DNA of 64,000 bases from an uncultured virus (IMG/VR IMGVR_UViG_3300043468_000945) (lineage: Duplodnaviria; Heunggongvirae; Uroviricota; Caudoviricetes; Crassvirales). Below are positions 312 to 44,394 of this stretch, in pieces (position 1 is the first letter of the stretch; each line of letters begins with the position of its first letter). The notes under the pieces are model-generated. The model ran no database searches. It was not told the DNA's origin and was given only the letters and a program-made list of their open reading frames with translations. A program made the position numbers and the translations under genes. The stretch lies in the IMG/VR virus record IMGVR_UViG_3300043468_000945; one strand, given 5' to 3'.

Positions 312-1768
312 AGGTAAAAGTCTTTCTTAAAATGGTTTACGGTATAATCTTTTTTCTTGGTAACAGCTTTGTATATCTCGTACTCAATCCCGCCCTTGCT
401 GAATACCCAATACACGTGGTTGAACGCACGCTCTTTGGTTGTCATCCTGTCCTTGCTCTGCCAATAGCTAGTCGCACTGAAGTCGATGTTGTAGTACACT
501 AGGTAGTCTGCCTTCTTGAGGCTGATGCCTTCGCGTCCTGATACAATCTGCAGGGCGATGTTCTTATCTGTGTCTTCAAAGACACTCAGCTCTGTAGTCA
601 GTTGGTCTCCGAACACTTGCTGAAGGGCATTGAACTCCTCCTTGAACTTGTAGAAGATGCCAATCTTGCACCCGGCAAACTGCTCCTTGATGAACTCCGC
701 CTTGGTGGTGTCGATGACCATGCTGTTGCCGCTCTCGAACTTGATGGTGCCACTACTGAGCTGATGCACCTTCATCATTAGCTTCACCGGTGTATCCGCA
801 AGGATGGTCTCTTCCTTCCCTTCGATTACCAAATCCCGCTGCAGCTTCTTGATGATGGCCTGTGTCGCCGGCTTCATCTCTACCTCTAGGATTTCCTCTG
901 TCACCTGCGTGATGAATCCTGCCTCCTCCTGTGAGTAGTTAATCATGTACGGCTGCATTGCCTGCATGATGCTGTCCAACCCGTTGCTGTAGTCCTTGAT
1001 GAATAACCCATTTATTTTCTTCTGCGTCACACGAACGTGCTTGTCCGCGAAGCGGTAGAAGTTCTGAAACTCCTTGAATGGGTTTCCGGGAATGCCATAC
1101 ACTTGGTGGTACATTTGAGAGTAGCTCTCAGGCGTTGGCGTCCCTGACAACAGGACCACTAGTGGGTCGCACTTGGCAATGAGTCCCTTCACCATTAGCG
1201 CCCGCTCGCTTGGCTTTGCGAATGCGCCTAGGCCATGGGCCTCGTCAAGGATAATCATGTCCCACTTGTACTCGTTCATCACGTGGTGCAGGCTCTCGTA
1301 GTTTATCACTCTGAGGATGTACCCCGGCTCAAGCATCTCGTAGTCGTCCTGAATGGAGCTCATCGCTTTCTTCTTGGTGACGAACAGAACGGTCTTACAT
1401 GTGGCGTACTCTGCTAAGCCTAAGCTCGTCAGTGTCTTCCCGGTTCTTACCTCCATTGCTAGGTACACGAAGCCATGCTCCATCAGGATGTCGTAGGATG
1501 CAACTATGATGTCATTTTGATACGGTCTAAATTCAAATTTTCTACTCATGTCTTGCTGTGTTTTGTAGAAGTCTAGGCTCTTCTCAAGTCGGGCACGGGT
1601 AGCGTCGCAGTCGCGGTACTTGTATTGGTACTCGACGGCTGACGTCTTACCCCGTCCAACTTTTACGGGCACCTGTTTATTGACTATGTTGAGCAGCAGT
1701 TGGCAGTACTCAACCATAGCCTTGTTGGTGTATCCCGGTTGGCGTTCAACTATCTCACTCTGAATCAT
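308..1768 (-). CDS. superfamily 2 (SNF2-like) helicase
   Basis: FRPYQ Q-motif, MEVRTGKT Walker A, ILDEAH, LSGTP, SGREGISL, QSKDR; ATG at 1768 preferred over the TTG at 1798. Confidence 0.85.
   Translation of the reverse strand: MIQSEIVERQPGYTNKAMVEYCQLLLNIVNKQVPVKVGRGKTSAVEYQYKYRDCDATRARLEKSLDFYKTQQDMSRKFEFRPYQNDIIVASYDILMEHGFVYLAMEVRTGKTLTSLGLAEYATCKTVLFVTKKKAMSSIQDDYEMLEPGYILRVINYESLHHVMNEYKWDMIILDEAHGLGAFAKPSERALMVKGLIAKCDPLVVLLSGTPTPESYSQMYHQVYGIPGNPFKEFQNFYRFADKHVRVTQKKINGLFIKDYSNGLDSIMQAMQPYMINYSQEEAGFITQVTEEILEVEMKPATQAIIKKLQRDLVIEGKEETILADTPVKLMMKVHQLSSGTIKFESGNSMVIDTTKAEFIKEQFAGCKIGIFYKFKEEFNALQQVFGDQLTTELSVFEDTDKNIALQIVSGREGISLKKADYLVYYNIDFSATSYWQSKDRMTTKERAFNHVYWVFSKGGIEYEIYKAVTKKKDYTVNHFKKDFYL
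570..585. repeat. 16-bp palindrome GTGTCTTCAAAGACAC, copy 1 (inside helicase CDS)
   Basis: Exact match, read as ...VFEDT... on the minus strand. Confidence 0.9.
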
Positions 1769-8052: not shown

Positions 8053-9108
8053 TTATAGTTCTGATTTATATATCATTACCTCATTCTCTTTGAACCACTC
8101 GTCGCATCCTTTGCAGTGGTAGTTTGAGAACCCGTCGTGCTCTAGGTCATGGAAGCAATTGATGCAGATGGGCCCCTCTTCGTCGAGGATGAAGTCGCTG
8201 TCGTCTTGGTCCGGCCCGTCGTCGAACAGGTCGAACTTGGGAAACGGCTCGCGCTTGTATGTCGGCATGGGGTAGGTCTCGTGCAGTACCTCTCCCTGAC
8301 TCTTTTGCATGAGGTTGAAGTACAGCCAACATGAAAGTGTCTTGCCCTTGGATGTAACGATGTCAATCTTTTTGCGGCGGTACCACGTTGGGTGCTGCTC
8401 GAGCCTGTCAAGCTTTGCCAATACCTCTTCGCTGACTTTGAAGATGTCCACCTCCACGTTGTACCCATGTCCACGCTCCTCAATCATGTAGGGCAGGCCC
8501 TTGATGACTAGGGGGTATTTGTCCTTGGTGGTACCTGAGCCCACGCGTTTGCTAGTGGTGAGGTAGTTGTAGTAGTTGCCGTGTCCTTTCTTGAGGGTGC
8601 CGTACACAGCAACAAGGTGCTCCTGTAGTACGTTTGGTTTACTGAACCATATTCCGTCGCGTTGGGTCCACATGTCTTTGTTGTAGATTTGGTAGGTCCT
8701 GTTCCTGACGTTGATGGTAACGAACCGGCATTCGTGCTGCTCTAGTTCTTTCTTCCACGTGTGACGCGGTAAGTCTCCCAATGTCTCGGCCAATACTTTG
8801 CTGTCTGATTTCTTGGCGTTGCCCAACCCGGGGATGGTCCCGTTCATCATGAGCAACTCGTTCTGATTCTTGCCGCAGATGAAGGGGTGGGTATTTGCCC
8901 TGTTCACCGCTCCCACAGTGGCGTACCTGAAGTGCGCGATGTATGGGCGCTCGGTGATGAGCAACTTGTGCTCTGATGATTTGTGGTAGGTCACCTCGAA
9001 GGTGTCCAACCAAACGATTCCCAACCCATGTGGGTTGATTTTGCCTGACGTCTTGGCTACCTCAGCGGATAGCACTTTGCCTGATGGTTTGATGATAATT
9101 ACACACAT
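8053..9108 (-). CDS. class II glutamine amidotransferase fused to gamma-glutamylcyclotransferase (AIG2-like) and a C-terminal Zn ribbon
   Basis: Start MCVIII (N-terminal nucleophile Cys), NPHGLG, HFRYATVG, NTHPF, NG, SDS; VYGTLKKG...LDRLE...WYRR; CINC...CKGC. Confidence 0.85.
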   Translation of the reverse strand: MCVIIIKPSGKVLSAEVAKTSGKINPHGLGIVWLDTFEVTYHKSSEHKLLITERPYIAHFRYATVGAVNRANTHPFICGKNQNELLMMNGTIPGLGNAKKSDSKVLAETLGDLPRHTWKKELEQHECRFVTINVRNRTYQIYNKDMWTQRDGIWFSKPNVLQEHLVAVYGTLKKGHGNYYNYLTTSKRVGSGTTKDKYPLVIKGLPYMIEERGHGYNVEVDIFKVSEEVLAKLDRLEQHPTWYRRKKIDIVTSKGKTLSCWLYFNLMQKSQGEVLHETYPMPTYKREPFPKFDLFDDGPDQDDSDFILDEEGPICINCFHDLEHDGFSNYHCKGCDEWFKENEVMIYKSEL

Positions 9109-9135
9109 AATTTGATTTGATTTGATTTGTGGGCA

Positions 9136-9151
9136 GTGTCTTTGAAGACAC
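9136..9151. repeat. 16-bp palindrome copy 2 (GTGTCTTTGAAGACAC), in the leader of the GATase gene
   Basis: Exact match, between promoter 9170-9177 and ATG 9108. Confidence 0.9.
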
Positions 9152-9169
9152 AGAACCCTAATTATTGTA

Positions 9170-9177
9170 CAAAGATA
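9170..9177 (-). promoter_or_regulatory. Bacteroidota -7 element (TATCTTTG)
   Basis: TAnnTTTG, intergenic, upstream of the GATase gene. Confidence 0.6.
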
Positions 9178-9197
9178 ATACAGAAATTGTACATTTC

Positions 9198-9356
9198 CTA
9201 ATTTTTTCTTGCTCTGAAGTGCGCTCTGACTAGCAGGGGATTCTCCCCGATGTGCCGGTAATACACTTTGTCGATGGCCTCCCATTTGGTGCAGGCGTAG
9301 ATGGTCTCCACTAGGTGCCCCCTGTAGAATACCTTGAAGAAGTACTTACTTTCCAT
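9198..9356 (-). CDS. small hypothetical protein
   Basis: MESKYFFKVFYRGHLVETIYACTKWEAIDK... Confidence 0.6.
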   Translation of the reverse strand: MESKYFFKVFYRGHLVETIYACTKWEAIDKVYYRHIGENPLLVRAHFRARKN

Positions 9357-9951: not shown

Positions 9952-10162
9952 GTGATTTAATTTTAGTTGTGAATTTGATGCCACAGGCGATTACTTTAAC
10001 GTTGCGGGCCCCGATGGCGATTGTCCCGCGCCGCTCCCTCATTAGGTAGAAGGTGGTCCCGTCGGCCGATAGCGTTGCCCACTGAGGGACGCGCTGCTCA
10101 GGCGCTAGTGTCACCGGTCTCTTGATGAGAACGAGGAACTCATTGGATGGCGTTACTTGCAT
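9938..10162 (-). CDS. hypothetical protein
   Basis: ORF in operon. Confidence 0.55.
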   Translation of the reverse strand: MQVTPSNEFLVLIKRPVTLAPEQRVPQWATLSADGTTFYLMRERRGTIAIGARNVKVIACGIKFTTKIKSHEIN

Positions 10163-10353
10163 TTCTCCTCCTGTTTCTCAGCCCTCATGGCGGCAGCGCC
10201 GTAGAGGATTTTGCGAGGGATAGGATACACGCAGTACAGCGCTTCCAAAAACTCCATGAACTCCTTGAGGTCTTTCTCCTCGTCGAGGTACAGCAGGCGG
10301 TCAATCAACCCTTGGATGATGTCGAGCCTTTCTTCAAAATTTGGTCTTTCCAT
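10153..10353 (-). CDS. hypothetical protein directly downstream of hammerhead 1
   Basis: ATG 20 nt after the ribozyme, A-rich leader. Confidence 0.65.
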   Translation of the reverse strand: MERPNFEERLDIIQGLIDRLLYLDEEKDLKEFMEFLEALYCVYPIPRKILYGAAAMRAEKQEEKCK

Positions 10354-10372
10354 GTCTTTGTTTTTTTAGTTT

Positions 10373-10423
10373 CCCGTTTCGTCCTTTTGGACTCCTCAGC
10401 ACCGGCACTCACCGGTGGACGGG
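10373..10423 (-). ncRNA. type III hammerhead ribozyme 1
   Basis: Minus strand CCCGUC^CACCGG-UGAGUG-CCGGUG-CUGAGGA-GUCC-AAAA-GGAC-GAAACGGG; complete core and three perfect stems. Confidence 0.92.
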
Positions 10424-10424
10424 T

Positions 10425-10440
10425 GTGTCTTTGAAGACAC
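10425..10440. repeat. 16-bp palindrome copy 3, abutting hammerhead 1
   Basis: Exact match; arms extend to GTGTGTCTT/AAGACACAC. Confidence 0.9.
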
Positions 10441-10451
10441 ACTCCATGAAG

Positions 10452-10688
10452 TTATCGAAAATTGTGCACGGCGATTACCACGTACAACCCGATGATGTGG
10501 ATTATCCACGCTAGGCGGAACTTGTCCATGAGCCACCTTTCTTTTTCCGTATCCAACATGGATGATAGGATGACTCCGATTAGGGTCGCTAGGCCCATGA
10601 TGATGGATGCGACGATTGATGAGCAGAACAGGCTAGCATAGGATGGCATAGCGCTAAGGATTACTAGGAGGGCGATTGTCTTTTTCAT
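10452..10688 (-). CDS. small membrane protein
   Basis: Two to three hydrophobic segments. Confidence 0.65.
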   Translation of the reverse strand: MKKTIALLVILSAMPSYASLFCSSIVASIIMGLATLIGVILSSMLDTEKERWLMDKFRLAWIIHIIGLYVVIAVHNFR

Positions 10689-11499: not shown

Positions 11500-11517
11500 G
11501 GTGCTTGTGTTTAAATG

Positions 11518-11540
11518 TTGTACAAATATAGTATAATTCT
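11518..11540 (-). promoter_or_regulatory. early promoter, 23-bp identical to 13498-13520
   Basis: Minus strand AGAATTATACTATATTTGTACAA contains TAnnTTTG. Confidence 0.75.
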
Positions 11541-11557
11541 AGTATAAAACAATACTT

Positions 11558-11743
11558 TTAAAAAAATATTTTTTTCAGGCCGAAAGGTGTGGCGCTTAGG
11601 TCGTAGTCAAAGTCGTACCCGTACGCCTGTACCTCAGCGCGTGCGTTCTCTAGGTCCGTGTACTCAGCGTCCTCGGGGAGGCTCAACAGGATGGCCGCCA
11701 CCTCAGCGGGCCATGTCTCGGGGTGATTGAATAAGTCTTGCAT
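11558..11743 (-). CDS. small acidic hypothetical protein downstream of hammerhead 2
   Basis: MQDLFNHPE...GYDFDYDLSATPFGL; ATG 20 nt after the ribozyme. Confidence 0.7.
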   Translation of the reverse strand: MQDLFNHPETWPAEVAAILLSLPEDAEYTDLENARAEVQAYGYDFDYDLSATPFGLKKIFF

Positions 11744-11762: not shown

Positions 11763-11813
11763 GCCGTTTCGTTCTTTGGAACTCATCAGGCGGAGCACTC
11801 ACTCCGCGACGGC
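11763..11813 (-). ncRNA. type III hammerhead ribozyme 2
   Basis: Minus strand GCCGUC^GCGGAG-UGAGUG-CUCCGC-CUGAUGA-GUUC-CAAA-GAAC-GAAACGGC. Confidence 0.93.
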
Positions 11814-11826
11814 CGGAGCCCCTCCC

Positions 11827-12747
11827 TTATTGGAGGAACTCGGCTATACTCGGGTCGATTTTGTTTTTGAGGATGAACGCTCTAAAGTGTCGGGCGTACT
11901 CGGTGATTTCGTCAACCTTTGCGGCGTCCTGTTCGTACATGCTCAACAGGATAGGGCGGAGGGTTTTGAGCAGCGCCTCGTGGCTCCCGTTCGGGCTCTG
12001 AATTGTGAAGCGCACCACCTCATAAAATAGTTCGTATCGGCGCATCATTTGCTTCACTGACTGAACGCGCGACGGAACGCGGAACTCAAGGCAGTTGCCC
12101 TTAACTAGGGCCGTTTGGTATTTGCGGTGGTTCCCTGTGCTGCTGTACTCGTACGAACCGCCCCATGAATTGAACACGCTGTCGCTGTTTGATTGCATGC
12201 GGCGATTTGCTCCGCAGTATTTCGTGTTTAGTCTTTTGCGCCACAGGGCCAAAACAATACCGCAATTTTTGCGGACCGCTTCGCGCAGTTGGTCTCCGTC
12301 CATGCCTTGCACCGCTATGGTGATATGGCCGCCGCAGCGCTTGTCGCTAGGGCTGAACCTATCGTCGACGATTTTCTCCGCCTTGTGCATCATGTCGAAT
12401 ACTTTGGTGCGCCATGTGCTCGCCGGAAGCAGCGGCAAAATGTGCGTAACCGCTTCATAACCGCATGAGCCGTCCGTCTCGAACCCACAAAAAAGTTCGT
12501 ACTCGTGCACCGCGTTCCTGTGCAGTTGGTTCTTCTCAACCTCGAAACCGATTGTGTATTTCGCGGCGTAGTCCATGCCGTCGAACGTTAGTTCTTCGCG
12601 GACCTTTGAGGCCTTGAGGCCCGCCACGTCGACGTGCTTCGCGCCTCTTGCATGGTTCAATGGGTCCGGCTTCCTGTGGTACCCCTGTACTTGACCGCGC
12701 ACCCTTTGGCCGGTCACTTTGTATTCAATTCCTTTTGCTGTATTCAT
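11827..12747 (-). CDS. putative COOH-NH2 ligase (amidoligase)
   Basis: TIGFEVE, ETDGSCGYE, CGGHITI, KY, LEFR motifs of the amidoligase family. Confidence 0.8.
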   Translation of the reverse strand: MNTAKGIEYKVTGQRVRGQVQGYHRKPDPLNHARGAKHVDVAGLKASKVREELTFDGMDYAAKYTIGFEVEKNQLHRNAVHEYELFCGFETDGSCGYEAVTHILPLLPASTWRTKVFDMMHKAEKIVDDRFSPSDKRCGGHITIAVQGMDGDQLREAVRKNCGIVLALWRKRLNTKYCGANRRMQSNSDSVFNSWGGSYEYSSTGNHRKYQTALVKGNCLEFRVPSRVQSVKQMMRRYELFYEVVRFTIQSPNGSHEALLKTLRPILLSMYEQDAAKVDEITEYARHFRAFILKNKIDPSIAEFLQ

Positions 12748-12764
12748 GGCGTTTATTTTTTAGT

Positions 12765-12780
12765 GTGTCTTCAAAGACAC
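12765..12780. repeat. 16-bp palindrome copy 4, 18 nt upstream of the amidoligase ATG
   Basis: Exact match. Confidence 0.9.
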
Positions 12781-12784
12781 AAGG

Positions 12785-13555: not shown

Positions 13556-13813
13556 TCCCTGTGTTCAATTCTAGTTCATGCGCTGTTTACTAGGTGTTTA
13601 TAGTTGGTTCAATTCGGGTGCAATTGTTTGGGCATGTTTACAGGGAGGAGGAGGCAGCCCCCTCTCTCTGTGTCTTTGAAGACACAAACAGGGAGCAAGG
13701 AGGGAGGGACGGAGGCAAAGGAGGGAGCACAGGGAGGAGGAGCGGACGCACAACAGGGAGGGGACGGCGTCGCTGCACAGGCAGCGGCACCGGTCCCAAT
13801 GATGCACAGGGAA
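13556..13813. repeat. ACAGGGA(G) repeats in the purine-rich divergent junction
   Basis: Copies at 13640, 13688, 13729, 13753 and 13806, plus an inverted copy at 13556. Confidence 0.65.
13670..13685. repeat. 16-bp palindrome copy 5 (divergent junction)
   Basis: Exact match. Confidence 0.9.
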
Positions 13814-14433: not shown

Positions 14434-16029
14434 ATGGAATATTCACCTAAGGATTTGGTCTTTGCAGAGCAAGGCCGCCTAAAACTTATCTCAGGAATTG
14501 AGAAAATTGCCGGTGCTGTTAAAAGTACCCTCGGGCCTAACGGCAACACTGTATTGATTGAGAGCCCACACCACACACATGGTATTACTGTAACGAAGGA
14601 CGGTGTCACTGTCGCTAAGGCTGTGGACCTGATTGACCCTGTCGAGAACCTTGCGGTTAAGATGATGAAGGAAGCGGCTGACCGTACTGCTACGAATGCG
14701 GGTGACGGTACGACTACTGCCATTGTCTTGACTGAGGCATTGGTCAAGAGTGGTCTTGAGATGATTAGGCCAACCGACAACCGCACAGCGGTGTTACGTC
14801 ACATGGTGGACTTGAGCAATGGTGTGGTGGACAAGCTACGTCGCCGTAGCAAGAAGGTGTCGAGCAGCATGCTAGTAGACATCGCGACCATCTCGGCGAA
14901 CAATGACCGTGAGACGGGGCGTATTATTGCTGACGTGTACCGTGCTGTAGGGCGTCAGGGTATTGTGACCGTTGAGCGTAGTCAGACTGCTGAGACGTAT
15001 GCTGAGACAACTAGGGGATTGAAAATTGACAGGGGGTATCTGAGCCCGTTGTTCATCAACGACCAAAAGCGTGACGAGTGCGTGCTTGAGGACGTGATGA
15101 TTTTGGTTGCCGACATTGAGATTGGCAACATTCTGCAGATTGAGAACGTGTTGAAGCCAATAATTTCCGAAGGAAAAAAGTTGCTCATTATTGCTCCGTG
15201 CCACAATAACGTTGTGAACACGTTGGCGGCGAACGTTCTGAAGAACAACCTGAAGATTTGTGCTGTGCCTCCACCTAGTTTTGGGTATAAGCAGCATGAG
15301 CTGATGCACGACATTGCGGTGAGCGTCGGTGCTACCTACTTCTCTGAGAAGACGGGTGACGACTTGAGCCATATTACATACGCGGACCTAGGCCATGCAC
15401 ACAAGGTGGTGGTGAGCCGCGACAAGACCATCATCTTAAAGAGCGACTTGAAGGTCAATCACCAATTGGTTGCTGAGCGTGTGTCACAGCTGTGGGCATC
15501 ACATGCTGAGGCGAAGAAGAAGGCTGACAAGGACCACTTGCTTGAGCGCATTGCGTCGCTGACAGGTGGCATTGGTGTCATCTTCGTTGGTGGCAACACT
15601 GACCTAGAGCAGAAGGAGCTGTACGACCGTGTCGATGATGCGGTGCATGCCGTTCGCTCAGCACTTGAGGAGGGTATTCTTCCCGGAGCGGGCAAAGCGT
15701 TATACGAGGCTAGCCAATTCAATTTGGGCTTGGAGCATTCTGACGAGAGGTTCGTAGCTAGTTCGATTCTAAACCACGCACTGCAGGCTCCGCTCAAGCA
15801 GATTTTGACCAACGCAGGTCTTGACGTGATGGATTACTACTACGAAGAGGTGCCTGAGGGTCATGGTCTGAACGTAAAGACCCGTGAGATGGGTGACCTG
15901 ATTAAGATGGGTGTGATTGACCCGCTGAAGGTTACTCGTTCTGCGCTGCAAAATGCGGTGAGTGTGGCTACAACTATCCTTTCAACCAACGCCATCATCA
16001 CTATGGCGCGTTCATACGAGACCAAATGA
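14434..16029 (+). CDS. groEL: phage chaperonin GroEL
   Basis: STLGPNG, VTKDGVTVAK, AGDGTTTA, DRGYLSPLF, ALEEGILPGAG, GVIDPLKVTRSALQNA; no GGM tail. Confidence 0.97.
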   Translation: MEYSPKDLVFAEQGRLKLISGIEKIAGAVKSTLGPNGNTVLIESPHHTHGITVTKDGVTVAKAVDLIDPVENLAVKMMKEAADRTATNAGDGTTTAIVLTEALVKSGLEMIRPTDNRTAVLRHMVDLSNGVVDKLRRRSKKVSSSMLVDIATISANNDRETGRIIADVYRAVGRQGIVTVERSQTAETYAETTRGLKIDRGYLSPLFINDQKRDECVLEDVMILVADIEIGNILQIENVLKPIISEGKKLLIIAPCHNNVVNTLAANVLKNNLKICAVPPPSFGYKQHELMHDIAVSVGATYFSEKTGDDLSHITYADLGHAHKVVVSRDKTIILKSDLKVNHQLVAERVSQLWASHAEAKKKADKDHLLERIASLTGGIGVIFVGGNTDLEQKELYDRVDDAVHAVRSALEEGILPGAGKALYEASQFNLGLEHSDERFVASSILNHALQAPLKQILTNAGLDVMDYYYEEVPEGHGLNVKTREMGDLIKMGVIDPLKVTRSALQNAVSVATTILSTNAIITMARSYETK

Positions 16030-16274: not shown

Positions 16275-16476
16275 AAAATTCGTGAGATTTACATTGGTGT
16301 GGGTTGCATGTAACCTGTCGATTCCGTTTTGGATGGTGGGTCACGTGCATCTCACGCTCAATATCTACGAAGATATGACCGAAATCATGTCATCCATGGG
16401 GATGAACATCGTGGTAGCGGTAGGATTTTGGTTAAATTGGAAAGAAGAAATCAATAAAAATGAAAGCAATAGGTAA
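16267..16476 (+). CDS. small membrane protein
   Basis: MFKKFVRFTLVWVACNLSIPFWMVGHVHL...; ATG at 16267. Confidence 0.6.
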   Translation: MFKKFVRFTLVWVACNLSIPFWMVGHVHLTLNIYEDMTEIMSSMGMNIVVAVGFWLNWKEEINKNESNR

Positions 16477-16717
16477 AAACATCGTCATCAAACACATTGA
16501 CGAAGAGGTAAAGACAGCATCAGGCTTAGTCCTGTCAGGCGAGGACACCAATCAGCTACGTTACAAGCGTGGTGTAGTGGTAGAGCCGGGGACTGACGTG
16601 GCCGTAATCAAGGCCGGAGACGAGATTTACTACGATAAGAACAACACGTACACCATGATTATCCATGATGAGCAGTACAGCATCATTCAGGAACGTGACG
16701 TGGTGCTTGTCCTGTAA
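16460..16717 (+). CDS. groES: co-chaperonin GroES
   Basis: KTASGLVL mobile loop, GVVVEPG, KAGDEIYY, IIQERDVV. Confidence 0.9.
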   Translation: MKAIGKNIVIKHIDEEVKTASGLVLSGEDTNQLRYKRGVVVEPGTDVAVIKAGDEIYYDKNNTYTMIIHDEQYSIIQERDVVLVL

Positions 16718-17145: not shown

Positions 17146-17153
17146 TATATTTG
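17146..17153 (+). promoter_or_regulatory. -7 element (TATATTTG)
   Basis: TAnnTTTG, divergent from and 10 bp off the wHTH gene start. Confidence 0.6.
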
Positions 17154-17237
17154 TACGTAACAAAATTACAAAATTATGGGACCTTGTACTCAAATTGTTA
17201 AAGCGGCAACTATGCCAAAACCTAAAAAACCAAAGAA

Positions 17238-17662: not shown

Positions 17663-17997
17663 TGAAGGACGCATGCTACAAAAAAGTCAAAGCATCGTAT
17701 GATGTGTTCCCTTCTGCAAGAGCGTCGCAAGCGATTGCCAAATGCAGGAAGGCTTCAGGTAGCGTGACCAAGTCTGAGAAAGGTGCTAGCCTCAAACGTT
17801 GGGAGAAAGAGAAGTGGGTTGACACCAAAAGTGGTAAGGCCTGTGGTGCCGGTGGTAAGAATGAATACTGCCGACCAACAAATCGTGTGTCTTCAAAGAC
17901 ACCAAAAACCAAAAGCGAGTTATCGCCATCTAAACTTGCTGCGAAGAAAGCAGAAAAGTCTAGAGTTGGAATGGGAAAAAAAGTTTCTAAAGTTTAG
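17662..17997 (+). CDS. small basic protein
   Basis: MKDACYKKVKASYDVFPSARAS...LKRWEKEKWVD...CRP. Confidence 0.75.
   Translation: MKDACYKKVKASYDVFPSARASQAIAKCRKASGSVTKSEKGASLKRWEKEKWVDTKSGKACGAGGKNEYCRPTNRVSSKTPKTKSELSPSKLAAKKAEKSRVGMGKKVSKV
17887..17902. repeat. 16-bp palindrome copy 6 (in CDS, read as VSSKT)
   Basis: Exact match. Confidence 0.9.
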
Positions 17998-20106: not shown

Positions 20107-20568
20107 ATGCCTGAAGAAAAAAAGAAATTTAGAGATACCAAAGTTGGTAAGTTCTTAAAGGACAAGGCTCCGTCTATACTAGACAAAGTGGGAGACTTGT
20201 TGCCTGACGCAGGTGTGTTGGGGATAGTTAAAAATTTAATTGACAATGACGCCAAACTAAGCCCGGCAGATAAGGCTTTGGCTCAGCAGCATCTGAAAGA
20301 GATGTATGAGCTTGAGGTTCGCGACCGCGAGTCTGCTAGAATTAGGGAGGTTGAAATTGCGAAAACAGGCAAGTTCGACTTGCTATTTACACTCACGGGT
20401 TTAATTGGCTTGGGGGTTTTTGTTTTTATCGTATACGCCATTGTCTATCTACAGATACCGGAAGAAAACAAAGAGCTTTTTATACATTTGATAGGTATTG
20501 CTGAGGGAGTTGTTCTTTCTATTTTCGGATATTATTTTGGTAGTGCAGTGAAGAAAAATATTCAGTAA
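20107..20568 (+). CDS. holin-like membrane protein
   Basis: DRESARIRE motif, two TM helices, YYFGS end; follows the endolysin. Confidence 0.6.
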   Translation: MPEEKKKFRDTKVGKFLKDKAPSILDKVGDLLPDAGVLGIVKNLIDNDAKLSPADKALAQQHLKEMYELEVRDRESARIREVEIAKTGKFDLLFTLTGLIGLGVFVFIVYAIVYLQIPEENKELFIHLIGIAEGVVLSIFGYYFGSAVKKNIQ

Positions 20569-23500
20569 TGCCAAGAATAAGTTCATATCCCATACTATCT
20601 ACTCCTACAATAAATGACTTATTGATAGGTACCGATGTAGAGAATTTTAATGATACCAAAAACTTTTCGATTGGTGACATTGGAGACCTCTTCTTCAACT
20701 ACTATGTTCCCTATGTAGGGGCCAACGGAAACGTTGATTTAGGAATTTACGGGATAACGGGTGGTTATTTCGCGGTTCAAGGAGGTACTGAGTTTCAGTT
20801 TTTAAAGGCTGACGGTACCCTAGACCCTACTTTATATACTCCTGAGACGCGTACGCTCACCATCAATGGTGTTACGTACAACCTCAGCGAGGATAGAACG
20901 TGGACAATCCCATTGATTGACACGCTAACCACCATCGGTACGGGTGGCCCGGCTACTCTAGAGGGAAGTGTTATAAACATTCCCGTGTATCAGGAGCAGG
21001 GCGACTACATTACCGCCCTTACAGGTGAAGCTTCGGCTTCAGGACCGGGCTCAGCAAGTGTAACCCTGCTAAATTCTGCTGTCATTGCCAAGGTTTTGAC
21101 GGGACTGAACATCACAGGTGGGTCAGTTGTAGCAACTGACAGCATTTTGACTGCGTTTGGCAAGGTTCAAAATCAAATAAACGGCCTTATTGGTGGTGTT
21201 CAGTACAAGGGGACGTGGAACGCAGAGACCAATACGCCTACTTTGACTAGCTCAGTAGGTGAACAGGGTAATTACTACATAGTAAGCGTAGCCGGTAACA
21301 CAAACTTGAACGGTATTACGTCATGGAACGTTGGTGATTGGGCCATTTTTGATGGTGAATCATGGAGCAAGGTTGATAACACGGACGCTGTTGTAAGTGT
21401 AAACGGGTATACCGGAGCTGTAGAGCTGACGTATGCTGACGTTGACGCGGTACCTACGTTCAGGACCATCGAAATTAACGGTACTTCTTATGATTTAACC
21501 GCAAACCGGTCATGGACTGTAGGTAACGTACGTACTGATGCGTTTTATAACAACCCTACGTGGATTACGGGGCTAGCTTGGTCCAAGATTTTAAGCACTC
21601 CTACCACCTTAGCGGGTTATGGCATCACTGATGCGGTTGAAGACACTACTACGCTGACCATAAACGGGACGTCATACGACCTCTCTGCGAACAGAACGTG
21701 GAACGTTGGTACAATTACATCAATTAGCACAATTGCGCCGCTTACAGGCGGCACTATTACCTCAACAGGGACCATAGGCATCACCCAAGCGGGGAGTGTC
21801 ATGGACGGATACCTAAGCAGTACCGATTGGAACACCTTTAATGCGAAGCAAAACTTTATGACGGCCAATGCGCCACTGTCAATCTTGGCAGATGTCATTA
21901 GTATCTCGCAATCAGGGGCTTCTTCCAACGGTTACCTCAGCTCGACTGATTGGAACACGTTCAATAATAAGCAAAATGCTTTAGTGAATCCCGTTACCGG
22001 TACAGGTACGGTGTATTATATCCCTATGTGGACAGGTGTTACTGCACTTAGCAATAGTATCATCTCATACGCTGCAGGCTTGATGAACTTCGGGTTCAAC
22101 AACGCAGAGGGAGCGTCTGTTGTGTTCACGAATACCGCAACTACTGAGTATACGTATTCAATTTCTATGAATAACGTGACTCGTACTACGTTCCATACGT
22201 ACACTGACGGGAATATCGCTAATTTCATTGGTGCTACGCAGACAATGCGTGTATTCAGCAACGGGAATACCATTATTGGGACAGGCGTTGTCAACAATGG
22301 GTACAAACTTGAGGTAGGTGGGAACACCAACATCATCGGAGACCTTACTTCTAGCAATTCTCCTGAGTGGGATGCAGCTTACGACGCAAAAATCAACAGC
22401 GCTGCTGTAACCGGAACGACCACAAAGACGCTTACCATGTACCGTCAAGACGGTGGCACCGTAACCGCGTCATGGTCTGACTATGACACGGCTCCTGTTA
22501 CTTCTGTGTTCGGTAGATTGGGAGCTGTAGTTGCTGAAGCAGGTGATTATAGCACTACTCTTGTAACAGAGGGAACAAATCTTTACTACTTAGACTCAAG
22601 AGCAAGAGCTGCTATCAGTTCTTCAGCTACAGGTCTTACTTATACTACGCTTACAGGGGTTCTTAGTTTGACTGCGGGGTATTCAATCCCGACAAACGCA
22701 AGTCAGTTAACTTGGGACTCTGCGTACAACAACATGATTGTGTCTGCCGCAGTTACGGGGACAACAACAAAGACATTAACGCTTAATCAGCAGGATGGTG
22801 GAACTATTACTGCTACATGGAGTGATTATGATACAGCTCCTGTTACTAGCGTATTTGGTCGCACCGGAGACATCATTGCTCAGTCGGGAGATTACTCTAC
22901 TACCTTAGTAACTGAAGGGACTAATCTATATTTTACTGAGTCGCGAGCACGCGCTTCGATTAGCTCATCGGCTACGGGTCTTACATACACCACATCTACG
23001 GGTGTTCTTAGCTTGACATCAGGCTATGCCATTCCGACTACAGCATCTCAAGTAACTTGGGACAACGCCTACGACAACATGATTGTGTCGGCTGCTGTAA
23101 CAGGTACCACAACCAAAACTCTTACGCTTAACCAACAGGATGGTGGTAGCATTACTGCATCTTGGAGCGATTACGATACGGCTCCTGTAACTAGTGTCTT
23201 TGGTAGACTAGGAGCAATTGTTGCTGAGGCAGGAGACTACTCAACAACTCTTGTTACTGAAGGAACCAACTTATACTACACCAATGCTAGGGCTCGTCAG
23301 GCTATTAGCTTGACAACTACAGGCACTAGTGGTGTTGCTACGTATGACAACGGAACAGGAGTATTGAACATCCCTAATTATGGGTCTGTGCTTGTGGGGT
23401 ATGTCCCATACACCGGGGCTACGCAAAGTGTAAACCTTGGCGAGTGGGGATTGTCTTCAGGGTTTTTAAAACTTGACACGACACCTATTGGTACCCCTAC

Positions 23501-25646
23501 CACAGCGGGGACAATGTATTGGGACGCGTCTCATTCAACTGTTGCTCTCATAATGGGAGCTGTAACACAGCACGTCGGTCAAGACACATACTACTACGTA
23601 AAAAACTCGTCAGGTTCTGCCATCCCAAAAGGTACTGCGGTTCGTTTCGCCGGTACTGATGGAGCAAGTGGGCATCTTCTTATTGCTCCATTCCTTGCTG
23701 ATGGGACATACCCATCTAATTACTTCATGGGGGTTACGGCTGAGGATATTGCAAATGGTAGCTTTGGTCAGGTTACTCACTTTGGGGAAATCGAAGGCAT
23801 TAATACTAGTGCATACGGAGCGGGCTCATTATTGTATGCGTCCACAACCGTGCCCGGTGGATTCCAAACTACAGTACCATCAGCACCAAACAATATTGTT
23901 CTCGTTGCCTCAGCGCTAAACTCAAAGAATAACGGAATAATACTCGTTCGTCCGACCTATGGGTCAAACATTAACGATGATGAGGGGGTTCTTATCACTG
24001 CTCCTATAAATAACCAAGGACTATTCTTTGATAGTGGCTCGGGTATTTGGGTAAATAAAACAATTGCTCAGGCATTGGGCTATACGCCTGTGCCTACTAC
24101 GCGTACGCTTACCATCAATGGTACATCGTACGACTTGAGTGCAAATAGAACGTGGTCTGTCGGTACTGTTACAAGCGTTGACTTGACGGTTCCTACCGGA
24201 TTCTCTGTATCAGGAAATCCAATTACAACTGCGGGAACGTTTGCTTTAACTTTTGCTTCAGGCTATAGCCTTCCTACGAATGCAGCTCAAGCAAATTGGG
24301 ACACAGCGTACACAAACAGAATTACTTCACTTACGACTACAGGGACTAGCGGTGCAGCTACGTTGATAAGCAACGTGCTTAATATACCTCAGTACCAAGC
24401 ACAAGGGAACTATATAACATCACTCACAGGAGAAGCCACAGCGAGTGGGCCGGGCGCAGCAAGTGTCACGCTCAGCAACTCTGCTGTTACAGGCAAAGTC
24501 CTCACAGGCCTTACAGTTACAGGGGCTGTAATATCATCTACTGATAGCATTCTTACAGCCTTTGGTAAACTACAAGGACAGGTGAATGGCTTGATGGGTG
24601 GATTACAGTACCAAGGAACTTGGAACGCTGCTACAAACACACCAACTATCACATCAGGTGTTGGGGTTGACGGTCACTTTTACATTGTAAGTGTAGCCGG
24701 AACCACAACTATTGATGGAATTACTGATTGGCAAGTAGGGGATTGGATTGTGTTCCATGATACTGCATGGCAGAAGGTGGACAACACTGACTCTGTTACT
24801 TCTGTAAACGGATTCACAGGAGCTGTTACTCTTACTACGAGCAACATCTCTGAGGGAACTAATTTATATTTCACTACTTCGCGTGCTCGTCAATCAATAA
24901 GCTTGACTACGTCAGGGAATAGCGGTGCTTCAACTTACGACAACGGGACCGGCGTTCTCAACGTGCCTCAGTATACTATTTCGGGTATTGGTGGCGTACC
25001 GACTACTCGTTCTCTTACCATCAATGGTACTGCGTATGACTTGTCAGCTGATAGGTCTTGGAGCGTAGGAACAGTTACCTCAATTACTGCAGGCACAGGG
25101 CTTACAGGTGGTACAATTACTTCAACAGGAACGATTGCATTTGACACCACGTTTGGTGACGGTCGTTACTTGCGTTTGACCGGTGGCACAATGACCGGAG
25201 ACATCACATTTATTGATGATGCAGAGGGGCTTGTTTGGTCAAGAAATACTGATGGAGGGTACATTAAATTTTTCAATGCAGGAGACGGTGATACTAACTC
25301 ACGACTTGAGTTCAATACCTCTGACAACAATAATGAATACTTCCGTTGGACTCACACTCCTTCGGGTGGTAGCTTGTACGAGTTGATGCGATTGGTTGGC
25401 AACAGTGCAGATAATTCTATTCTATCAGTTAGTGGAGGCATTGGAATTAATGTACTAAATTTGAATCAATCAGCACTGTTCCAAATGGACAGTACTACAA
25501 AGGGATTTTTACCTCCTCGTATGACGTTGGCGCAAAGATTAGCTATCGTATTACCTGCTGAAGGGTTGATAGTTTATCAGACGAATGGTGTGGTGGGTTT
25601 GTATATTTACGCAAGCGGCACGTGGAGAACTCTTGGAATGATATAA
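20568..25646 (+). CDS. giant tail fibre-like structural protein with internal repeats (1692 aa)
   Basis: Thr/Gly-rich; repeated TRTLTINGTSYDLSANR.W, VTSVFGR, EGTNLY and YxGTWNA modules. Confidence 0.8.
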   Translation: MPRISSYPILSTPTINDLLIGTDVENFNDTKNFSIGDIGDLFFNYYVPYVGANGNVDLGIYGITGGYFAVQGGTEFQFLKADGTLDPTLYTPETRTLTINGVTYNLSEDRTWTIPLIDTLTTIGTGGPATLEGSVINIPVYQEQGDYITALTGEASASGPGSASVTLLNSAVIAKVLTGLNITGGSVVATDSILTAFGKVQNQINGLIGGVQYKGTWNAETNTPTLTSSVGEQGNYYIVSVAGNTNLNGITSWNVGDWAIFDGESWSKVDNTDAVVSVNGYTGAVELTYADVDAVPTFRTIEINGTSYDLTANRSWTVGNVRTDAFYNNPTWITGLAWSKILSTPTTLAGYGITDAVEDTTTLTINGTSYDLSANRTWNVGTITSISTIAPLTGGTITSTGTIGITQAGSVMDGYLSSTDWNTFNAKQNFMTANAPLSILADVISISQSGASSNGYLSSTDWNTFNNKQNALVNPVTGTGTVYYIPMWTGVTALSNSIISYAAGLMNFGFNNAEGASVVFTNTATTEYTYSISMNNVTRTTFHTYTDGNIANFIGATQTMRVFSNGNTIIGTGVVNNGYKLEVGGNTNIIGDLTSSNSPEWDAAYDAKINSAAVTGTTTKTLTMYRQDGGTVTASWSDYDTAPVTSVFGRLGAVVAEAGDYSTTLVTEGTNLYYLDSRARAAISSSATGLTYTTLTGVLSLTAGYSIPTNASQLTWDSAYNNMIVSAAVTGTTTKTLTLNQQDGGTITATWSDYDTAPVTSVFGRTGDIIAQSGDYSTTLVTEGTNLYFTESRARASISSSATGLTYTTSTGVLSLTSGYAIPTTASQVTWDNAYDNMIVSAAVTGTTTKTLTLNQQDGGSITASWSDYDTAPVTSVFGRLGAIVAEAGDYSTTLVTEGTNLYYTNARARQAISLTTTGTSGVATYDNGTGVLNIPNYGSVLVGYVPYTGATQSVNLGEWGLSSGFLKLDTTPIGTPTTAGTMYWDASHSTVALIMGAVTQHVGQDTYYYVKNSSGSAIPKGTAVRFAGTDGASGHLLIAPFLADGTYPSNYFMGVTAEDIANGSFGQVTHFGEIEGINTSAYGAGSLLYASTTVPGGFQTTVPSAPNNIVLVASALNSKNNGIILVRPTYGSNINDDEGVLITAPINNQGLFFDSGSGIWVNKTIAQALGYTPVPTTRTLTINGTSYDLSANRTWSVGTVTSVDLTVPTGFSVSGNPITTAGTFALTFASGYSLPTNAAQANWDTAYTNRITSLTTTGTSGAATLISNVLNIPQYQAQGNYITSLTGEATASGPGAASVTLSNSAVTGKVLTGLTVTGAVISSTDSILTAFGKLQGQVNGLMGGLQYQGTWNAATNTPTITSGVGVDGHFYIVSVAGTTTIDGITDWQVGDWIVFHDTAWQKVDNTDSVTSVNGFTGAVTLTTSNISEGTNLYFTTSRARQSISLTTSGNSGASTYDNGTGVLNVPQYTISGIGGVPTTRSLTINGTAYDLSADRSWSVGTVTSITAGTGLTGGTITSTGTIAFDTTFGDGRYLRLTGGTMTGDITFIDDAEGLVWSRNTDGGYIKFFNAGDGDTNSRLEFNTSDNNNEYFRWTHTPSGGSLYELMRLVGNSADNSILSVSGGIGINVLNLNQSALFQMDSTTKGFLPPRMTLAQRLAIVLPAEGLIVYQTNGVVGLYIYASGTWRTLGMI

Positions 25647-25661
25647 AAAGAAAAATAAGAC

Positions 25662-28600
25662 ATGGCAAATTTAGCTACGATAAGCAATAACATATTAGCA
25701 GACAGCGGGATAGACCCGATTGATTTGATTGTTGGAACAGGTACTGTCAATTATGTACCCAAGTTTACCGCTGAAGGCACGATAGCTAATTCGCAGATAT
25801 TTGACAATGGAACAACTGTAGCAATTGGGACCACAGCTACTAATGGCTCTAGGCTTCAAGTTCAAGGTAATACTGACATTTGGCACAGTTTAAATACTTT
25901 GCTTAGATTGTATCATGACGGTACAAGAGCCGTTCTGCAATCTTACACAGGAGGAGCATATTCTAATATTTCATTAAATGCTGAGGGGGGCAACGTCGGA
26001 ATTGGAACTTTTTCTCCTACTCAAAAGCTTGAGGTAGCAGGAAATCTCAGAGTAACAGGAGTTGTCTATACAGATGTTGTAGCTACAAATAGCGGAATAT
26101 CAATTGATTTTCGTGACCAAGCTGCTGCAAGTATTATGTACTTGGATGCCCCTAATAAACGTGTAGGAATTGGAACTACTGCGCCTTCATCGTCTTTAGA
26201 AGTAATAGGTTCAATTAGGAATAAAAACGCTAGTTCAAACGCTAATTATAGTCAGCTATCTACTACTGAAGCAATACTAAACATATCTACTTATTCTATT
26301 AATACAGGCGGGTATCCTGCTCATATTATTTTTTCTCCTGCATCTGCTGAGCGCATGCGCATTACTGATGCAGGTAATGTAGGGATAGGCACAAGTAATC
26401 CATTTGCTAAGCTTCAAGTAAATAATGGGGATATAGCGGCATACAATAATATATCCACTAATGGAGCTCAATTATATCTTGGAGACACAAACTTTTCTAA
26501 TTCATCATATTTTAATTCTGCCCCCGGTATTGGAGCTGTATATAGTCCTGACAGTAATGTTGCAGGGGATTTAGCATTTTATGTTTATACAGGCGTAGCT
26601 TCAAGTAGAACTGAGAGAATGAGAATATTGACCTTAGGGCAAATTCGTCTCAATTCTTACGGCTCAGGTTCATTTATAGGTACGCCAACTTACAACCTTG
26701 CTGTTGACGCAAATGGTAACGTCATTGAGACAGCAGGTGGAGTTGTAGACGGAAGCGGAACAGCGAACTATGTAACCAAGTGGATTGATGCCAACACTGT
26801 TGGCAATAGTCAGATATTTGACAATGGTACCAACGTAGGTATCGGTACTGTAAGCCCTTCTTATAAGCTTGACGTTCTTGGTTCATTTAGTTTTACAACA
26901 GGGGGGAACTACTTGCAATACAGTAGTGGTATTCTTTATCATGGAAACTACTATCAATTCCCAAGTGGTAACAACTACTTATTATTTGCAAGAGCAAGTG
27001 GTGATTTAATATTTGGCGCAAACGATGTTGAAAGAATGCGTATCACAAGCGCAGGCAACGTGGGGGTTAATACTTCAGCTCCTGATAGGAATCTAACTAT
27101 TGTTGGGACTACTCGCCATGAGCGTGTTTATGGATATGGTAACTATTCTTTTAACTTTTCAAATGTAGGAATAGGCGAAACTTTTACTTGGTTTAAACTA
27201 GGTAATGCTACTCCGTTCAGTCAAACAAAATTGTACTACAGAGCGGGGACAAGTACTTCGGAGGAAGAAGGAGAAATTAAAATATCAAATACTTGTGCAG
27301 CTCCTTTTATTGAGTGGACTAGAAATACATACAACTACCACATAAGAGAAGTTAGGGGAGTAATGACAGGGAGCTGTGGATTTTGCGAGATATGGGTATT
27401 AGTTAGACACGGCAATTACAATCTTGGCGCAAACACTAACTTCCAATGGCAAATACACAATGGTACTGACTCAAGTTTTGTAGTAGCGAATGCTACAGGC
27501 ACCCCCGGTACAGGCACTAGCCAAAAGTCTATTAATTCTACTGACCTATATTTTTATGCCAACTCAGACAACATGTCTGTTGCGGGCTTCGTAGGTATTG
27601 GCACTACAAATCCTACTGTAAAACTTCAAGTTGAAAACAATTCTCATAACTACATACAAGTAAACAGTAGTGTTGCGAATGTTCAAACAGCAATAAACGT
27701 AACAAACTCTGCTTCAACTAGCAGAGCGTCATTATCTTGGGAAGATGGTACTAGAGGAGCTTATGCTGACTTGTACTCATCTACTTACTTGACATTAACT
27801 ACGCAGTCTTCTGAGAAGATGCGCATCACTGCCGCAGGCAATGTCGGCATTGGGACTTCTACTCCGAGTTATAAACTTGAGGTAAATGGTAATGTGTACG
27901 GTTCTACTACTGCTCAGTTTGGGACAGGGTACATTGATGGTACACAGTCAGGATGGGCAATATTTGGTAGTAACTCTTCATCAAATGGAATTAAAATTGT
28001 TCTTGACGGAAGTATATTAAGGAATGATATTGTTATCGCGACAAGTGGGCTTATTGGAATCGGCACAGGTGCGCCTACTGAAAGACTTCACGTATCAGGC
28101 AACCTTCGTGTAACAGGGGCATACTACGACTCAAACAACTCAGCAGGTACATCAGGTCAAGTGTTGTCATCAACAGCAACAGGGACTGATTGGGTAAGCC
28201 TTTCTGAGATTACAGGCGTTGACGGTACAGGTACAACGAACTACGTGCCTAAGTGGCTTGATGCTAATACCATTACTGATAGTTTGCTGTATGACAATGG
28301 TACAACTGTATCAATAGGTCTTGGAGCAACTACTCCGAGTTATACTAGCGCCTATGGGTACCCTCAGTTTGCTATCGAAAGCAATGCTTTTGCAAGCTCT
28401 CACGTGTTTACTCACAATAGCACTAATGGAAACTATTCATTCTTTGCATTAGGAAAGAGTAAAGGAACAGCTGCAGCTCCAACAATCGTTGAGAATAGCG
28501 AAACAATTGGAGATTTTCAGTTTTGGGCTTATGATGGCGCAGCATATAGAAACACCGCCTTTATTAGAAATCAAATTGATGGTACTCCCGGGGCAGGGGA

Positions 28601-35498: not shown

Positions 35499-35519
35499 AA
35501 AATAGACTATATTTGTACT

Positions 35520-44356: not shown

Positions 44357-44394
44357 AGGGGTGGTGTGTCTTCAAAGACACACCCCCTTTTTTT
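44357..44394 (+). terminator. terminator after the capsid gene, built around 16-bp palindrome copy 8 (44366-44381)
   Basis: GGGGTGGTGTGTCTTCAAAGACACACCCCC followed by T7. Confidence 0.85.

Follow-up and report, generated by a model that had tools for sequence, protein, structure and literature searches.

Here we describe a hammerhead ribozyme motif in a 64,000-nucleotide (nt) stretch of DNA from an uncultured virus of the Crassvirales (IMG/VR record IMGVR_UViG_3300043468_000945), a stretch that we call the window throughout. Positions 10423..10373 of its minus strand hold a complete hammerhead of 51 nt, referred to below as HH-B, which was read directly from the letters and which, judging by its sequence, is a genuine type III hammerhead ribozyme. 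It lies between two cistrons, and a second copy, HH-A, is found on the same strand at 11813..11763. The reading that we favour, and to which we give somewhat better than even credence, is that HH-B is a genuine hammerhead that acts in cis within a conserved intercistronic cassette, where its self-cleavage would separate the neighbouring cistrons.

Structure and covariation of the ribozyme

Stem III of HH-B is open and made up of 5 base pairs (bp), CCCGU (10423-10419) pairing with ACGGG (10377-10373). In the cleavage triplet, GUC, the C17 residue is C10418, and the predicted cut falls between 10418 and 10417. Next come stem I, with 6 bp (CACCGG/CCGGUG) closed by loop 1, UGAGUG, the core segment CUGAGGA, and stem II, with 4 bp (GUCC/GGAC) closed by loop 2, AAAA, and followed by GAAA. 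No core position is altered, C3, U4, G5, A6, N7, G8, A9, G12, A13 and A14 all being in place together with an H17 other than G. The A15.1-U16.1 pair corresponds to U10419-A10377, and the G10.1-C11.1 pair is present in HH-A and HH-B alike. With stems I and II closed by loops, stem III open and the cleavage site 5' of stem I, the topology is that of a type III hammerhead, and the three-way junction is the minimum-energy structure of the isolated 51-mer (-21.2 kcal/mol).

The second copy, HH-A, was likewise read directly and is also 51 nt long, with a predicted cut between C11808 and 11807. HH-A and HH-B are identical at all but 16 of the 51 positions, and 14 of these 16 constitute seven base pairs changed on both sides (five in stem I, one in stem II and one in stem III). 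The remaining two differences are at N7 and at the base that opens loop 2, and no pair is broken. The hammerhead sequence quoted in the first-pass annotation, as well as the compensatory changes in all three stems on which it had relied, are therefore borne out.

An E-value threshold scan of the whole window with the Rfam model RF00008 (Hammerhead_3) aligned both copies over model positions 1-54, with 35.5 bits (E 6.5e-4) for HH-B and 42.1 bits (E 9e-6) for HH-A, and these were the sole matches with E up to 1 in the 64 kb. Both copies nonetheless miss the RF00008 gathering threshold of 48.5 bits, and a default scan of the window reports none, which counts against us; the subtype scores low with RF00008 because the Rfam consensus has different loops. 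The bare core pattern occurs three times in the window, compared with 0.97 expected, and nine of 100 shuffles reach three. Because the bare pattern alone is not rare, the case rests on the full structure.

To enlarge the comparison, relatives were collected with a pattern that fixed only loop 1 (UGAGUG), CUGANGAG and CGAAAC, and of which the 5' strand of stem III and the cleavage site were not part. It returned 78 loci in viral contigs. After removal of two false positives (L006 and L035) and of duplicates, the resulting alignment, A1, comprised 71 distinct sequences, 69 from viral contigs plus the two of the window. Stem cells are paired in 97.6% of 1065 cases, versus 70.9% in shuffles, and the pairing falls to 33-44% when the partners are slid by 1-3 columns. 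Changes on both sides are seen at twelve of the 15 pairs. The alignment has a covariation score of 0.753, compared with 0.216 in shuffles, none of which (0/500) reaches 0.753; all these counts come from family members that are phylogenetically non-independent. Three pairs are invariant, two of which were partly fixed by the collection pattern. At the cleavage site, which the pattern did not specify, GU is present in all 71 sequences, with C as the next base in 45 and A in 26, and loop 2, which the pattern left free, is NAAA or AAGA in 71/71. The earlier claim of selection on structure, made from the two window copies, is thus supported by their seven compensated pairs and by the pairing across the alignment, sequence and covariation together indicating selection on the hammerhead fold.

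A covariance model built from A1, named R1, gives 76.1 bits to HH-B and 76.3 bits to HH-A, while nothing else in the 64 kb exceeds 9.7 bits. Over the collected loci R1 produced 133 matches, 113 of them distinct. All 113 have GU and, at H17, one of C, A or U; GAAA is found in 112, the one exception being a truncated match. UGAGUG is the loop 1 of 80 of the 113, a set that goes back to a pattern in which this loop was prescribed; most of the others fit UGNGUR, with variants such as UGUGUG and UGAGUA. Such loop conservation would be consistent with a tertiary contact between loops 1 and 2.

These data also bear on the suggestion that the motif is a chance resemblance or an inactive relic, to which we assign almost no probability. 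Its score under the Rfam gathering threshold and the shuffle counts for the core pattern would fit that idea. Opposed to it are the full-length model match at E 6.5e-4 in the window, the R1 score of 76 bits versus 9.7 for the next best place, the fully intact core, the compensation of all seven changed pairs and the strong covariation across the family.

The pair beside the core, 10.1/11.1, is mismatched in a subclass of the matches, being U.U in 14/113 and A.A in 2/113 (e.g., L030:767-820, L051:4162-4215, L064:4685-4738 and L073:587-640). Hammerhead screens normally discard candidates mispaired at this position (PMC3088659). Members of the subclass may be slow or conditional ribozymes.

The intercistronic cassette

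The hammerheads of this family are part of a cassette with a conserved order, namely an upstream hairpin, the ribozyme, a G-poor, A-rich leader and the ATG of a small open reading frame (ORF). Among the 119 distinct matches with enough flanking sequence, 118 are followed by an ATG-ORF of at least 30 codons that starts 12-51 nt past stem III, compared with 566 of 2380 random same-strand positions. A hairpin of -10 kcal/mol or lower lies within 47 nt before the ribozyme in 108/119 (controls, 445/2380), and in 100/119 the hairpin ends 0-1 nt from stem III. The leaders have a median length of 23 nt and consist of 51% A, 27% T, 17% C and 4.7% G. Downstream of the ribozymes lie genes that mostly encode 34-130 aa, and their 121 instances divide into 61 sequence clusters; with so many clusters the ribozyme is not tied to one gene.

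In the window, the leader of HH-B (10354..10372, minus strand) runs for 19 nt, A-rich and G-poor, from stem III to the ATG at 10353, and that of HH-A (11762-11744, minus strand), also A-rich and of 19 nt, to the ATG at 11743; the two are identical at 15 of 19 bases. An A-rich leader before the ATG had been correctly recognized in the earlier annotation, but its length had been given as 20 nt. The ORF downstream of HH-B (10153..10353, minus strand; 66 aa) is without family match. Its homologues were found in five other viral contigs, with a hammerhead ahead of each, forming a cluster of six. Upstream of HH-B lies an ORF of 78 aa (10452..10688, minus strand), whose stop codon is 27 nt before the start of the ribozyme model. 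The ORF 19 nt downstream of HH-A (11558..11743, minus strand; 61 aa) has a weak PHROG match (phrog_37263, E 6.6e-5) and one homologue behind a hammerhead, in contig L041.

The hairpin upstream of HH-B (10424..10441, minus strand) is a copy of the 16-nt palindrome GTGTCTTCAAAGACAC and reaches stem III directly. Such an adjoining palindrome had been noted before as a mere neighbour of the ribozyme; it is indeed present, but in its extended form it overlaps the first base of stem III. The hairpin upstream of HH-A (11816..11841, minus strand) is unlike the palindrome, and its loop holds the stop codon of a 306-aa ORF. Nine copies of the palindrome, mostly intergenic, occur in the window (568-586, 9134-9152, 10423-10441, 12763-12781, 13668-13686, 17885-17903, 37259-37277, 44364-44382 and 59055-59073). 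The one at 44366-44381, after a capsid-like gene, is extended and then followed by seven T, which makes it a textbook intrinsic terminator. It is the only copy with a T7 tail, the others being without a U-tract, and at 10441-10424 the hairpin is followed by CCCGUCC and not by the U-tract of an intrinsic terminator. At 9151-9136 and 12780-12765 the palindrome stands ahead of A-rich leaders and start codons without a ribozyme. In relatives, the hairpin ahead of the hammerhead often has the same palindrome sequence, sometimes a covarying version of it, and is sometimes an unrelated GC hairpin. Because its sequence varies in this way, we regard the upstream element as a general intercistronic hairpin. 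The palindrome sequence itself is kept upstream of hammerheads in many diverged viral contigs, and this conservation at the sequence level could reflect a recognition site for a protein or nuclease.

A promoter-like repeat with a TATATTTG box of the -7 type lies between the two ribozymes (11509..11540, minus strand). Its motif, TATATTTGTAC, has six copies in the window, one of them with a mismatch and the other five exact, and each runs in the direction of the genes around it (13510-13500, 11530-11520, 9177-9167 and 6829-6819 on the minus strand; 17146-17156 and 35508-35518 on the plus strand), and 0/100 shuffles reach six. The motif fits the -7 box of the flavobacterial sigma-A, TAnnTTTG (PMC9723704). 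The distribution of these copies suggests that the leftward arm may comprise several transcription units. No hairpin was found between the stop codon at 11558 and the motif at 11530. Because this promoter-like motif lies inside the interval, many transcripts reaching HH-B may start at ~11.5 kb and lack HH-A; the RNA that arrives at HH-B can plausibly come from read-through, from an internal start at 11530, or from both.

Another copy of the motif touches the ORF at 8053-9285 (minus strand), which encodes a glutamine amidotransferase-like region and a gamma-glutamyl cyclotransferase domain. Its true start is probably the ATG near 9098, because the promoter-like motif and a palindrome copy sit in the listed 5' part.

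Phage group, distribution and the interval between copies

The window is a podophage-like, lytic-looking genome of a ~60-kb phage group. Besides a Sak-type annealing protein, an exonuclease, a primase and a helicase, it encodes a large terminase, a portal, homologues of the crAss-type muzzle protein and GroEL/GroES-like proteins. Genes from 1 to ~13.5 kb are oriented leftward and comprise replication genes and small unknown ORFs, the remainder being rightward, and it is because of the replication genes and small unknown ORFs that we presume the leftward arm to be early. The terminase is 46% identical to that of Flavobacterium phage elemo and 36-43% identical to those of Cellulophaga and Maribacter phages, and these identities, together with the six co-oriented promoter-like motifs, suggest a Flavobacteriia-type host.

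Forty IMG/VR records were chosen for carrying the pattern and scanned with R1. In this motif-selected sample, 39 of 40 records have matches, the fortieth being a false positive; there is one in 14 records, two in nine, three in eight, four in seven and five in one, with the reservation that a record counted among those with three (G022) has one strong match and two weak ones (E about 0.003). The matches of a record are always on one strand, and the measured multi-copy clusters span at most about 6 kb. The related ~60-kb contigs, with their 1-5 hammerheads, agree well with the ribozyme-punctuated early arm envisaged in the first-pass annotation.

A second sample was drawn by terminase similarity alone and consisted of 18 contigs of at least 34 kb and 77-87% identity. 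A hammerhead is present in 6/18 of them, and in 4/6 of those at least 90% complete, indicating that it is dispensable. The closest GenBank relative, MW202828 (82.6% terminase identity), is without a hammerhead. In the nearest record, G001, only a 22-nt palindrome is common to this region and no hammerhead was found, and scans of Cellulophaga phi13:2 and phi38:1, Maribacter Panino and Tenacibaculum Gundel_1 found a hammerhead in none. The cultured Flavobacterium phage vB_FspP_elemoE_6-9C carries one family member (NC_055854 18097-18152, minus strand, corresponding to L087 6098-6153; 37.7 bits), unannotated there and located 13 nt ahead of the start codon of gp59, with which the leftward arm of that phage begins. 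The subtype was also found in eight contigs of a prokaryote collection, with 66-79 bits under R1 (L090, L093, L094, L095, L098, L099, L100 and L102). Six of them are labelled as Patescibacteria-type metagenome-assembled genomes, one is from an unclassified uncultured bacterium and one from the Bacteroidota isolate Daejeonella rubra. Some of the eight are without the A-rich leader and ATG context, and they could be mis-binned phage contigs or prophages.

This patchy presence among close relatives raises the question of whether the hairpin, hammerhead, leader and small ORF form an exchangeable module, in which the ribozyme would let an inserted gene use any read-through transcript and presence or absence would reflect gain and loss. 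The 61 clusters of downstream genes, mostly small ORFs of unknown function, the likeness of the HH-A and HH-B leaders (15/19 bases) and the occurrence of the subtype in unrelated metagenome-assembled contigs and in D. rubra would all fit such a mobile junction. The molecular act is nevertheless the same as in the reading that we favour, so that both overlap, and the orthologous downstream genes that retain the ribozyme across six contigs fit vertical retention equally well. Neither repeats nor scars of recombination were noticed beside a module, no search aimed at them having been made. We consider exchange of this kind unlikely as the explanation.

The piece between both predicted cuts, 11807-10418, measures 1390 nt. 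The fragment of ~1.39 kb proposed in the first-pass annotation was therefore correct in its arithmetic but incomplete as a picture, the promoter-like TATATTTGTAC at 11530-11520 lying inside it. It had further been suggested that an RtcB-type ligase might circularize the fragment. The ends left by hammerhead cleavage have the chemistry of RtcB substrates, and a 1390-nt RNA freed by both cuts might on this account be closed into a stable circular mRNA, either through RtcB or through reversal of the hammerhead reaction. A hybrid stem III formed by the 5' strand of HH-B and the 3' strand of HH-A would pair at 4/5 positions, and type III hammerheads do flank the circular RNAs of viroids and plant retrozymes (PMC4918200).

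Several results oppose this scenario, besides the internal promoter-like motif. No RtcB or RNA ligase domain was found among the 56 window ORFs scanned against Pfam. Over 51 neighbour pairs, the hybrid stem III has a mean of 4.16 pairs, close to the 4.00 of random pairings, compared with 4.63 for a ribozyme's own stem III. The spacing between neighbours varies from 219 to 2458 nt, the intervals are not repeats, and only one hammerhead is present in 14/39 motif-bearing records. For clustered prophage hammerheads, a search for circular or spliced products detected none (Perreault et al. 2011, PMC3088659). The suggested role of RtcB thus found no support here, and we hold the excision and circularization of the 1390-nt RNA to be very improbable; the same low credence goes to the broader proposal that inter-ribozyme RNAs are turned into translatable circles.

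Some further features of the window may be mentioned. A GroEL-like gene (531 aa) lies at 14434-16029 and a GroES-like gene (85 aa) at 16460-16717, both on the plus strand. Two giant ORFs of 2850 and 1692 aa (25662-34214 and 20568-25646, plus strand) contain many internal repeats (families D1-D8) and probably encode tail fibres or spikes; an endosialidase-chaperone domain lies at the C-terminus of the 2850-aa product. A further ORF, at least 2393 aa long (56821-63999, plus strand) and without family match, runs past the end of the window. The crAss-type DFDxD motif of the virion RNA polymerase was not found in the in-window parts of the large ORFs, including this last one.

Proposed mechanism and known systems

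Under the cassette reading that we favour, the ribozyme would fold as the leftward arm is transcribed and would cut after C10418. The upstream product would end with the GTGTCTTCAAAGACAC hairpin, a tail of ~6 nt and a 2',3'-cyclic phosphate. The downstream product would begin with a 5'-OH on a base already paired in stem I, followed by stem II, the unstructured 19-nt A-rich leader and the ATG of the 66-aa ORF. The likely effect would be to uncouple the fates of the neighbouring cistrons, the small gene gaining a defined and context-independent 5' untranslated region (UTR). Such a 5' UTR may be nuclease-resistant and yet open for translation, a natural counterpart of a ribozyme insulator.

A number of points weigh against this reading, in addition to the missed Rfam threshold, the non-independence of the family counts, the motif-selected sample of records and the dispensability and absences reported above. 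Cleavage of the HH-B RNA is itself predicted from the motif; among the sequencing runs on record, none of RNA was found to contain the stretch, and one run has 5% of its sampled words, in the form of contigs. A 5'-OH end can mark an RNA for decay, as does that of the glmS ribozyme product, which is degraded by RNase J1 in Bacillus, and because of this the downstream effect could be of either sign. N7 is G, as in HH-B, in only 2/71 sequences of A1. Finally, in a context of 121 nt the minimum-energy fold lengthens the upstream hairpin at the expense of stem III, taking up its CCGU, and the hammerhead fold is less stable by 1.4 kcal/mol for HH-B and by 3.6 kcal/mol for HH-A, under a nearest-neighbour energy model that leaves out tertiary contacts.

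This competing fold leads to an alternative in which cleavage is conditional or down-regulating. The hairpin would compete with stem III, or some factor would modulate folding, and a partial or timed cut followed by degradation of the 5'-OH product would lower or time the expression of the downstream gene. The conservation of the palindrome across diverged phages and its nine copies in the window hint at recognition by a factor, the 10.1/11.1 mismatch in 16/113 relatives may mean slower ribozymes, and regulated cutting of phage hammerheads was already raised by Perreault et al. (2011; PMC3088659). On the other hand, the energy gap is small (1.4 kcal/mol) in a model blind to tertiary contacts, the G10.1-C11.1 pair is canonical and the cleavage site GUC in both window copies, and the G-poor open leader with its tight spacing to the ATG looks made for expression rather than silencing. 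We therefore see regulated cutting as a minor possibility, though one ahead of mobile exchange.

The insulating cassette would be well suited to a host whose translation does without Shine-Dalgarno sequences. Bacteroidetes mRNAs are without such sequences, and mRNA structure tunes their initiation (PMC6847099). A more specific proposal is that cutting may bring a start codon that was internal close to the 5' end of a new RNA, which would bear a 5'-OH, a compact structured cap and an open, G-poor leader, so that efficient loading of 30S subunits on the small early genes would depend on cleavage. We put this forward only tentatively, as a rather improbable extension. If true, such cut-dependent translation in bacteria would correspond to the dependence on a ribozyme recently reported for translation in RNA viruses of fungi and plants (PMC13725137). 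In the 5' UTRs of these viruses a ribozyme likewise stands just ahead of the ORF and its self-cleavage has been linked to translation initiation, but they are eukaryotic, translation is cap-independent and the ribozymes are mostly type I hammerheads (PMC13725137).

The phenomenon itself is already known, and the arrangement has been described in other phages. Clustered hammerheads flanking prophage and phage genes were reported in 2011, when a role in processing long transcripts to mRNAs of gene length was proposed and cleavage of several of them was shown in vitro and in vivo (PMC3088659). As in the present case, several hammerheads lie close to each other on the same strand, on either side of a single gene or of a short run of small, non-conserved ORFs (PMC3088659). 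Differently from those clusters, as far as can be judged from the text of that paper, a single type III subtype is used throughout here, with loop 1 UGAGUG and loop 2 NAAA, and it belongs to a fixed cassette in what appear to be lytic ~60-kb podophages of Flavobacteriia-type hosts. De la Pena et al. (2017; PMC6155905), who also summarize these clusters, still called the biological function of phage hammerheads an open question.

The HHphage element of the haloarchaeal viruses HF1 and HF2 offers a close parallel, with a hammerhead 13 nt before an early gene's start codon and a mapped transcript 5' end at most 3 nt from the cleavage site (PMC3088659). There, however, a core variant that needs high Mg2+ is found at the start of an operon of an archaeal virus (PMC3088659), whereas the core is canonical and the ribozyme placed between cistrons here. 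The type III hammerheads of viroids and plant retrozymes also have stems I and II closed by loops and stem III open (PMC4918200). Their repeated units give rise to circular RNAs (PMC4918200), whereas the intervals between the phage copies are protein-coding and of variable length, with a promoter-like motif inside, and no selection for hybrid halves is seen. In the literature searched we found no earlier description of such hammerheads in phages of Flavobacteriia or in Caudoviricetes.

The insulator RiboJ, derived from a plant satellite RNA ribozyme, provides a functional comparison. In Escherichia coli it raises protein by 2-10 fold and transcript by about 2 fold (PMC6206723). Its effect is that of a hammerhead-type ribozyme in the 5' UTR that strips away the upstream context (PMC6206723), and the phage element is of the same type and similarly placed. 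RiboJ is, however, engineered and followed by a Shine-Dalgarno site, whereas the phage cassette is natural, with a hairpin before the ribozyme and a leader without a Shine-Dalgarno sequence.

What the present analysis would add to these systems is a well-populated type III subtype, a fixed cassette design and a cultured relative. Because the default Rfam threshold misses the subtype, such elements go unannotated in phage records. The unusually regular natural design, with 1-5 ribozymes per genome, together with the cultured relative, makes the function of these phage hammerheads directly testable.

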